64,000 bases of DNA from Promethearchaeota archaeon (lineage in GTDB: Archaea; Asgardarchaeota; Lokiarchaeia; Sigyniarchaeales; SOKP01): contig JBHLNS010000005.1 of assembly GCA_048941285.1 (NCBI GenBank), forward strand, positions 66,169-130,168. The letters are read 5' to 3'. Made by a program: the position numbers and the translations under genes. Each line of letters begins with the position of its first letter. Position 1 is the stretch's first letter. The notes beneath the pieces were generated by a model. That model did not search any database. It saw only the letters and a program-made list of their open reading frames with translations, and had not been told where the DNA came from. Shown here in pieces: positions 94 through 22,181 of the stretch.

Positions 94-341
94 TTTTCAT
101 TCACCTACTATATACAATAAATTTCATAATAAAAATCTTTTGATTGAAATCCTAATTTTAAATACTTAAAAAAATATAAAATGTGTTTAAGTTTTTGAAA
201 GTTGTACTAATGAAAATAACTTTTGATAAAGAAATTGAGAAGATAGTTCGGGAGCTTGCTATATATACCCATTTAAAAACCTATATTTAAATTTGCCAAC
301 TCTATTAAATATTTATAATAACAATAACAGAGTTAAGGATT

Positions 342-571
342 ATGACAGAATATAAAAGAGCAAAATGTCCCCAATGTGGCAATGAGAACCCACGCAAGCT
401 TCATGAAGAACCGGATAAAAATAATGTGCTATACTACAGCATAGGTAAAGCTATTTCAGCATACCGCTGAGGCAGGGCACTCCGGTTTATGCAAAATTTA
501 AATTTACATAAAATTTAGAGGCAACATCCATGAAATGCGGGGATTGCGGGAGTCTGTTCAAGAAGAACTAA
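342..571 (+). CDS. Small zinc-ribbon protein (56 aa) split by two BHB introns; exons 342-442, 472-495, 526-571
   Basis: Spliced: MTEYKRAKCPQCGNENPRKLHEEPDKNNVLYYSMQGTPVYAKSMKCGDCGSLFKKN, with two CxxC knuckles. The unspliced frame stops at TGA 468-470. Confidence 0.85.
443..471 (+). other. 29-nt BHB intron 1 in the zinc-ribbon mRNA
   Basis: Central helix CAGC(437-440)/GCUG(466-469); bulges AU^A and AG^G; intron stem GGUA/UACC; exon stem GUGCU/GGCAC. Ligation creates AUG and restores the frame. Confidence 0.88.
496..525 (+). other. 30-nt BHB-like intron 2 in the zinc-ribbon mRNA
   Basis: Central helix UGCA(490-493)/GGCA(520-523), 3 of 4 paired; bulges AA^A and AC^A; 9-bp intron stem UUUAAAUUU/AAAUUUAGA; removes in-frame TAA 509-511. 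Confidence 0.78.
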
Positions 572-658: not shown

Positions 659-1885
659 TTAGATTAAAGATAAAACTATTTTATTTTGAGCTTTCAACAT
701 ATCTTCCATAATAAGTTCCATCGCATCTTTGATATCCGGATTATTATCAGGAATACTACGTTTAGCATTCACACTTGCCATAAGGACTTCATTTAGTCCA
801 CGTAAAATCATATCTGGGCTATACCAAGGTCTTTGTGAAGCCCACCATTGTTGACATGAGTGAATTCCGCGATCTAACAAATTTCTTGCGTTATCAAAGA
901 TCCTTTTCTTTTCATTATCCATTCCATCTCGATATTTTGATGCTAAATGAATTAAGGTGAGGGCATACATAAAAAATCTATGTTGTTCAATATGTATTTC
1001 ATTTTGCGGGTTGAACCATAATGGGAAAGGCACGTCAGTAGCAATGTCATATGGCATTGTTGACCAACTTGAATCACGTGGAATTTGAGTAAACCCTTTA
1101 GGAAATCTATCTACTATTTCTGATAAAGTAGATATTTTTATATCATGTCGATGAGGGAGTGCTTGAAACAATGGGATTAAAAAGTTACTTATTGCATGTT
1201 TAACATGGTGTCCAAAAGTTTCACCATCCATAGCTAGTATAACATAATAGTCTTGAGATGTTTGCTTGTAATATAGACGTTTAATAAATGAATCTATATT
1301 ATTAATTTTATCAAAAGCGCAGTCAATTGAAATATAATCATCCCTAAAAAGTAGCTTAAGTCCATTAGGATGGACTGATATATAATTCGTAGGAAATTCT
1401 GCGGATGTGTTAGCAATTCCACTCATAATTATCCAATCAAAACCAGCTTTTTTCACGATTTTGAATACTTCTTCAGATACAGCCATTTCAGGAGGAAAAA
1501 ATCCACGAGGATTATAAAGCTTCCCAAAGAAATGTCTATTAGTATCATTATTTAAAATTATTTGGCGCTTAACTTCGGGTTCTGGGATTAAAGGAAGCAG
1601 AGGATGAAACTTTCCAGACCCAGTAAATTCAATTTGTCCTTTAGAGGCTAAAGTAATAATTGCTCCAATTAAATCGTCATATCCAAAATCATGTAATTGT
1701 TCGGTTAATGTTCCATTAATGTTTAAAGTAATTTTCGCCAGAGGGTTATCCCTTAATGCATCGATTATTGGCTTATAGGATTCATTTACTATTTGTTTGA
1801 TTACTATTGGGATTTGAACTGGAGGTTGATAAATATGAAATAAAAAGGCAAAATAAACGACCATATAATAAATTAAAAAATCCAC
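659..1885 (-). CDS. Glycoside hydrolase family 57 protein
   Basis: HIYQP, FHPLLPLI, FFPPEMA and MDGETFGHH motifs; true start probably ATG at 1864. Confidence 0.85.
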   Translation of the reverse strand: MDFLIYYMVVYFAFLFHIYQPPVQIPIVIKQIVNESYKPIIDALRDNPLAKITLNINGTLTEQLHDFGYDDLIGAIITLASKGQIEFTGSGKFHPLLPLIPEPEVKRQIILNNDTNRHFFGKLYNPRGFFPPEMAVSEEVFKIVKKAGFDWIIMSGIANTSAEFPTNYISVHPNGLKLLFRDDYISIDCAFDKINNIDSFIKRLYYKQTSQDYYVILAMDGETFGHHVKHAISNFLIPLFQALPHRHDIKISTLSEIVDRFPKGFTQIPRDSSWSTMPYDIATDVPFPLWFNPQNEIHIEQHRFFMYALTLIHLASKYRDGMDNEKKRIFDNARNLLDRGIHSCQQWWASQRPWYSPDMILRGLNEVLMASVNAKRSIPDNNPDIKDAMELIMEDMLKAQNKIVLSLI

Positions 1886-22088: not shown

Positions 22089-22181
22089 TGGCGGCCCTCG
22101 AGGGGAATCGAACCCCTACCCCTCCGCAGGATAACTGGGTTTGAAGCCCAGCGTCAGAGACCACTCCAACCGTCAAGGGCC
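22089..22181 (-). tRNA. selC: tRNA-Sec(UCA), 9/4 archaeal/eukaryotic fold, CCA encoded, intron-less
   Basis: 9-bp acceptor GGCCCUUGA/UCGAGGGCC, 7-bp D stem, UCA anticodon, long variable arm, 4-bp T stem, G73. Confidence 0.95.

Follow-up and report, generated by a model that had tools for sequence, protein, structure and literature searches.

The 64,000-nt window analysed here (contig JBHLNS010000005.1, positions 66,169-130,168, assembly GCA_048941285.1) belongs to a 3.55-Mb genome bin with 29.7% GC, hereafter G000, and carries on its plus strand a tiny gene whose close homologs bear the label Promethearchaeota (Asgard archaea). The frame read from the ATG at 342 includes a CPQC knuckle and runs into a TGA stop (468-470) after 42 codons; further downstream, a different frame contains a second knuckle, KCGDCG, and ends with the TAA at 569-571. 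We parse this region into a 101-nt exon 1 (342-442), which contains the start codon and the first CxxC (CPQC) and ends in phase 2 (AT/) at a boundary set by the intronless orthologs L018 and L019; a predicted 29-nt intron 1 (443-471) with a canonical bulge-helix-bulge (BHB) motif; a 24-nt micro-exon (472-495) that finishes the Met codon of exon 1, encodes QGTPVYA and begins a Lys codon; a putative 30-nt BHB-type intron 2 (496-525) with an in-frame TAA at 509-511; and a 46-nt exon 3 (526-571) with the second CxxC (CGDC) and the stop codon at 569-571. The initial annotation had described a 24-nt micro-exon within a 171-nt coding sequence for 56 amino acids, and had held that both removals are needed to join the CxxC knuckles. 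Its arithmetic is correct, the exons totalling 171 nt or 56 aa, and the reading frames agree, with both knuckles sharing one frame only once introns 1 and 2 have both been removed. Upstream of the gene, the stretch at window positions 300-340 (CTCTAYTAAATATTTA..., then ACAGAGTTAAGG) is conserved over 19 aligned loci and probably comprises the promoter and ribosome-binding region. Elsewhere in the window, a tRNA-Sec gene on the minus strand (22089-22181; Rfam 59.4 bits; ARAGORN anticodon TCA) was alone in matching Rfam at gathering thresholds across the whole window, and the organism is predicted to use selenocysteine.

The protein predicted from the joined exons has four cysteines, C10, C13, C47 and C50, that are invariant in 35 aligned homologs, and its linker LYYSMQGTPVY is invariant or nearly so in the same set. 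An AlphaFold2 model (mean pLDDT 81.5) places two long strands at residues 21-33 and 39-47. Searches with the zinc-ribbon models of Pfam and with NCBIfam gave matches that all fell under the curated cut-offs (for example Zn_ribbon_8, 19.5 versus 34.4 bits), and no PDB structure was matched by Foldseek at E <= 0.001; zinc ribbons such as MqsA, Rpb9/TFIIS and Rpp21 are among the weak top-ranking rows. A paralogous zinc-ribbon copy with 39% identity sits at the end of a 336-aa ORF on another contig of G000 (C72; L067, 1486-2496, minus strand), in which gelsolin-type repeats are apparent by eye and which has look-alikes of ~335 aa in many genomes of the genus. The best weak matches in five g22 genomes (G105, G107, G110, G122, G130) were likewise set aside as paralogs, not split orthologs.

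Archaeal BHB motifs have a 4-bp central helix, either strand of which is followed on its 3' side by a 3-nt bulge, and cleavage takes place between the second and third base of each bulge. The motif is described in a preprint on Asgard tRNA genes (bioRxiv 10.64898/2026.10.13.758758). In intron 1 it consists of a central helix H (437-440/466-469), bulges at 441-443 and 470-472, and an intron hairpin h' (444-447/462-465). The region was matched in 24/41 related genomes and in 49/54 genomes of the genus; we classified 44 orthologous loci of the genus, leaving out L020 (contig end) and L046 (masked bases). Intron 1 is present at 29 nt in 35/44 of these and exactly absent from the other 9/44, which have continuous ORFs of 56-57 aa. 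Across the 35 loci with the intron, 97.8% of cells are paired and 8/13 pairs have changed on both sides, a level of covariation reached by 0/500 shuffles, with slid controls at 15-57% paired. By this comparative evidence, intron 1 appears to be a textbook, well-supported BHB intron. We also considered an exon-exon helix (426-430/476-480) as evidence for the intron and rejected it, since it pairs equally in loci with the intron (4.65/5 pairs, n=40, a number that counts L065 = L001 and L048 = L047 twice) and in loci without it (4.70, n=10).

For intron 2, the initial annotation had quoted the 30 bases at 496-525 and read from them a 9-bp AU-rich stem, a UGCA/GGCA helix that includes a single A.G mismatch, bulges AAA and ACA, and an in-frame TAA, and each of these elements is found where it had been placed. 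The 5' strand of the central helix H, UGCA on the exon side (490-493), pairs with GGCA on the intron side (520-523), giving three pairs and the mismatch A493.G520 in G000. Bulge 1 (494-496, AA/A) and bulge 2 (524-526, AC/A) would be cut between 495 and 496 and between 525 and 526, respectively, the former equal to the comparative indel boundary described below, and the intron hairpin h' (497-519) has 9 bp (497-505/511-519), one of them a G.U (498.518), around a loop at 506-510. The TAA (509-511) is in frame with the micro-exon. The outer exon-exon helix h is weak: A489 pairs with U527, followed by three unpaired U and then by G484G485/C528C529. Judged against a yardstick of at least about 2 bp, the modelled intron 2 is of a relaxed BHB form in this outer helix. 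The minimum-free-energy fold of 484-532 gives the same arrangement of H, bulges and h' (-6.3 kcal/mol, 41% of the ensemble), with a stability not significantly greater than that of shuffled sequences (z = -1.48). When the longer segment 425-545 is folded, H is lost from the minimum-energy structure and 486-491 are paired with 529-534 instead. For any one fixed position, the frequency by chance of a length-30 geometry with at least 3 of 4 pairs in H and at least 9 bp in h' is 4.9e-5, against 4.6e-3 under a lax definition (H at least 3, h' at least 4 bp), both counted across the two strands of the G000 genome (7,096,802 positions).

The imperfect helix and the competing fold bear on the notion that intron 2 is a genuine BHB intron that is removed only partly or conditionally, such that its retention yields a truncated isoform and skipping of the micro-exon a product without QGTPVYAK. 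The A.G mismatch in H together with the alternative longer structure could indeed reduce the efficiency of splicing in G000, and the 24 nt of the micro-exon are a multiple of 3, the skipped product remaining in frame because 101 + 46 nt keeps the frame. Against a functional skipped form stands the fact that MQGTPVY is the most conserved motif of the gene, with little or no variation among 35 homologs, and we consider such regulated or partial removal unlikely. We favour instead regular excision of intron 2, a reading that draws on the comparative evidence below.

The 30-nt insert is absent from 43/44 classified loci of the genus and, in an alignment of 19 loci, occurs in G000 alone; in five additional genomes of the genus, a six-frame search found uninterrupted matches. 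Metagenome contigs of insert-free relatives cease to match exactly at 496 (X3 record 4, X9 record 12). When 495 is joined to 526, the junction recreates a Lys codon (AA/A) and reads ...PVYAKSMKCG..., ten residues that are the same as in the intronless ortholog L018. We scanned metagenome contigs by pattern for genes in which additional bases separate the PVY codons from the KCG codons and recovered four loci, among them L047 and L048, which are identical in sequence and carry a 30-nt insert at the site used in G000 with 7/30 bases different. In L047, 520 G>U creates a perfect UGCA/UGCA helix H, 498 U>C turns the G.U pair into G-C, 517 A>G turns U-A into U.G, 502 A>U leaves an inner U.U and breaks one pair of the stem, and the three other changes fall in the loop (506-508); the centroid fold of this allele is the canonical H-bulge-h' arrangement with 4/4 pairs in H, and the insert retains an in-frame TAA. 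A third allele, found in X3, X7 and X9, which come from three different studies, aligns without gaps across the insert and differs by 498 T>C, 507 C>T (loop) and 520 G>T, the last of these again bringing H to 4/4 pairs. Both further alleles preserve the in-frame stop inside the insert. Three alleles are too few for formal covariation statistics on intron 2.

These copies also bear on whether the insert could be an assembly or sequencing artefact of the G000 bin. Contigs from other studies contain a near-identical G000 allele (X5 record 9 and X9 record 13, each with one letter different), in addition to the diverged alleles in X3, X7, X9 and L047/L048. The insert has been seen in independent contigs and is therefore no assembly artefact, having been inherited through appreciable divergence; we regard the artefact explanation as having a negligible probability. 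A search of G000 for other copies of either intron gave only short AT-rich chance matches, and because the genome holds no other copy, the insert is not a repeat element.

Our comparison of the coding sequences on either side of the insert speaks to whether the 30 nt are actually removed. In the doubly spliced frame, 18 codons differ between G000 and L047, 14 of them synonymously and 4 non-synonymously, and their micro-exons are identical. Of these differing codons, exon 3 contains 6 of the synonymous and 2 of the non-synonymous ones, with the KCGDCG knuckle unchanged. In the X3/X7/X9 allele, a reading of the codons by eye gives 4 synonymous substitutions in exon 3 and a single Ser>Asn. Exon 3 thus differs mostly synonymously between carriers and is therefore still translated, and it can be read in its frame only if both intron 1, which shifts the frame, and intron 2, which contains the stop, are bypassed. 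This apparent purifying selection on exon 3 is, at the level of sequence comparison, the strongest indirect evidence for removal of the 30 nt. It weighs directly on the proposal that 496-525 is simply an unspliced insertion, in which case intron 1 would be removed, translation would stop at the TAA (509-511), and the gene would be disabled or truncated to a one-knuckle product of 49 aa. The imperfect central helix and the weak outer helix of G000 lend that proposal some plausibility. Opposed to it are the intact and mostly synonymously changing exon 3 in three carrier lineages, the divergence of these carriers by ~13% in exon bases (23/171) and by 7/30 in the insert, the coincidence of the insert ends with the BHB cut sites, and the fact that the variants improve the motif; we hold an unspliced insertion to be quite improbable. 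Relative to L002, the nearest relative in the genus, exon 3 of G000 (526-571) has GC-richer synonymous codons and is much less similar, unlike the first 197 nt, which are ~90% identical; this divergence may reflect recombination or a separate history of the 3' end.

On these grounds, we posit that 496-525 is likely a second archaeal BHB intron, carried by the pre-mRNA for a putative zinc-ribbon protein of 56 aa with two knuckles. According to the mechanism that we propose, the transcript would form a helix between 490-493 in the exon and 520-523 in the intron, flanked by the 3-nt bulges at 494-496 and 524-526 and by the 9-bp intron hairpin. The tRNA-splicing endonuclease EndA would then cut between 495 and 496 and between 525 and 526, that is, between the second and third base of each bulge, and RtcB would ligate the exons, thereby eliminating the in-frame TAA and recreating the Lys codon. 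Removal of the 29-nt intron 1 would correct the frame and, together with removal of intron 2, link both CxxC knuckles. The BHB motifs of introns 1 and 2 occupy separate bases (434-475 and 484-529), and the sequence therefore imposes no order on the two splicing events.

We infer the roles of EndA in cleavage and of RtcB in ligation at intron 2, and G000 encodes both proteins. It has two paralogs with an EndA domain (PF01974, 104 and 69 bits, in ORFs of 205 and 203 aa) and one RtcB match (PF01139, 568 bits), all exceeding the Pfam cut-offs. Two EndA paralogues are reported in most Asgard genomes and are taken to form a two-subunit enzyme (bioRxiv 10.64898/2026.10.13.758758), a type of EndA reported to cut non-canonical introns (PMC5829648). 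ARAGORN called introns at several positions in 19/31 tRNA genes of G000, raw calls of which some are probably wrong; many tRNA introns would fit a heavy use of the splicing machinery in this organism. A genome-wide census of BHB-interrupted ORFs in G000 yielded 25,769 raw and 1,584 filtered candidates, which are mostly ordinary gene junctions in AT-rich spacers and are not informative.

The presence of two introns in so short a gene had led to the suggestion of ordered or alternative splicing or of an insertion hotspot, the last of which our survey bears out: three second-intron sites lie inside 7 nt, in the short segment from the PVY to the KCG codons, in G000, G016, G057, G114 and G115 as well as in metagenome contigs, and at least seven lineages carry a second intron at one of them. 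Site a (cut GTA T/AY) is used in G016 (31 nt; L009 around 1589-1640, minus strand) and in the metagenome loci L049 (37 nt) and L050 (42 nt), and by eye its introns have just 2 bp in h'. Site b (cut TAT AA/A), 3 nt upstream of the G000 site, is used in two genera, namely in G057 (32 nt; L045, 436-486), which lacks intron 1, and in G114 (L054) and G115 (L055) (30 nt each), which belong to another genus. G114 and G115 both score 4/4 pairs in H, with 9 and 3 bp in h', respectively, and the site-b insert is absent from 6/8 aligned loci of their genus, an alignment that leaves out two more loci missed by the motif search. Site c (cut GCA AA/A) is the site of G000, of L047/L048 and of the X3/X7/X9 allele. 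Every second-site insert parses as a BHB, and its removal would restore the reading frame.

This variety of insert lengths is also informative about translational bypass, in which a ribosome would take off at the GCA at 491-493, hop over 30 nt and land on the GCA at 521-523. Gene 60 of phage T4 is a translational bypass system and offers an analog for such ribosome hopping. The locus does present matched GCA codons that are spaced by 30 nt and enclose a hairpin, a configuration that is kept in L047. Yet the repeated GCA follows from the palindromic UGCA/UGCA helix, the take-off codon has no stop after it, and hopping can account neither for the 29-nt intron 1 nor for the second-site inserts of 31, 32, 37 and 42 nt, all of which the BHB geometry fits. 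We therefore deem bypass very improbable and retain splicing of BHB introns as the reading for both interruptions.

As to the origin of these introns, the second intron of G016 is close to a copy of that genome's own intron 1, with 24/29 aligned bases identical (0/2000 interior shuffles as high), and is preceded by a second CAGUAU, the exon half of the intron 1 motif. This arrangement suggests that an intron was copied into a mimic site, i.e. an intragenic intron duplication. For the metagenome loci, the similarity of the second intron to intron 1 was matched or exceeded by 31/2000 shuffles in L049 and was not significant in L050. We put forward tentatively, as a possibility rather than as an expectation, that BHB introns of Asgard archaea repeatedly land in this very small gene and that such an intron spreads by inserting copies of itself at exon sites resembling the exon half of its motif. 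If true, self-copying BHB introns would yield multi-intron mRNAs with micro-exons. The same interruptions seem to have left their mark on public records: the database proteins P0039, P0040, P0042 and P0043 are 42-aa stumps in which exon 1 is read into intron 1, and P0033 (with a 12-aa insert), P0038, P0041 and P0024 change or end at the hotspot. All eight records likely reflect unrecognised introns and consequent mis-annotation, a concrete annotation failure in which public databases contain 42-aa stumps of this protein.

With two predicted introns, a micro-exon and three second-intron sites in 171 nt, the gene represents a compact natural system for intron gain, copying and loss, in which protein-spliced introns could be studied in the lineage nearest to eukaryotes. 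A eukaryotic parallel is found in the HAC1/XBP1 mRNAs, where the endonuclease IRE1 acts on twin stem-loops in a stress-regulated switch. Like the splicing proposed here, that system achieves the protein-only, spliceosome-independent removal of a very short, structure-defined intron from an mRNA; it differs in employing IRE1 in place of EndA and twin stem-loops in place of a BHB. This unconventional splicing by IRE1/RtcB is named in PMC13149111.

Closer in both motif and enzyme are the multiple BHB introns of Asgard tRNA genes (bioRxiv 10.64898/2026.10.13.758758), which share with the present introns the repeated, apparently independent gains and the background of two EndA paralogues. The hosts in that preprint are tRNA genes; in its text the term 'mRNA' occurs 0 times and 'protein-coding' receives one passing mention. 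Here, in contrast, the host is an mRNA, and removal must also restore a reading frame. A full-text literature search of main texts turned up no description of BHB introns in the mRNAs of Asgard archaea, and in the literature found, protein-coding BHB introns amount to the single case of cbf5 (PMC2738675). For that gene, a BHB intron in the pre-mRNA and its splicing have been reported in Crenarchaeota of the Desulfurococcales and Sulfolobales (Yokobori et al. 2009, PMC2738675). The cbf5 gene and the gene described here have in common a short tRNA-type intron in an archaeal coding sequence, its lineage-specific presence and loss, and the mis-annotation that it causes. They differ in that cbf5 is one conserved gene with one intron and reported splicing (PMC2738675), whereas splicing here is predicted from DNA; and, compared with cbf5, the Asgard gene brings together two introns in a 171-nt coding sequence, a 24-nt micro-exon and three alternative sites for its second intron.
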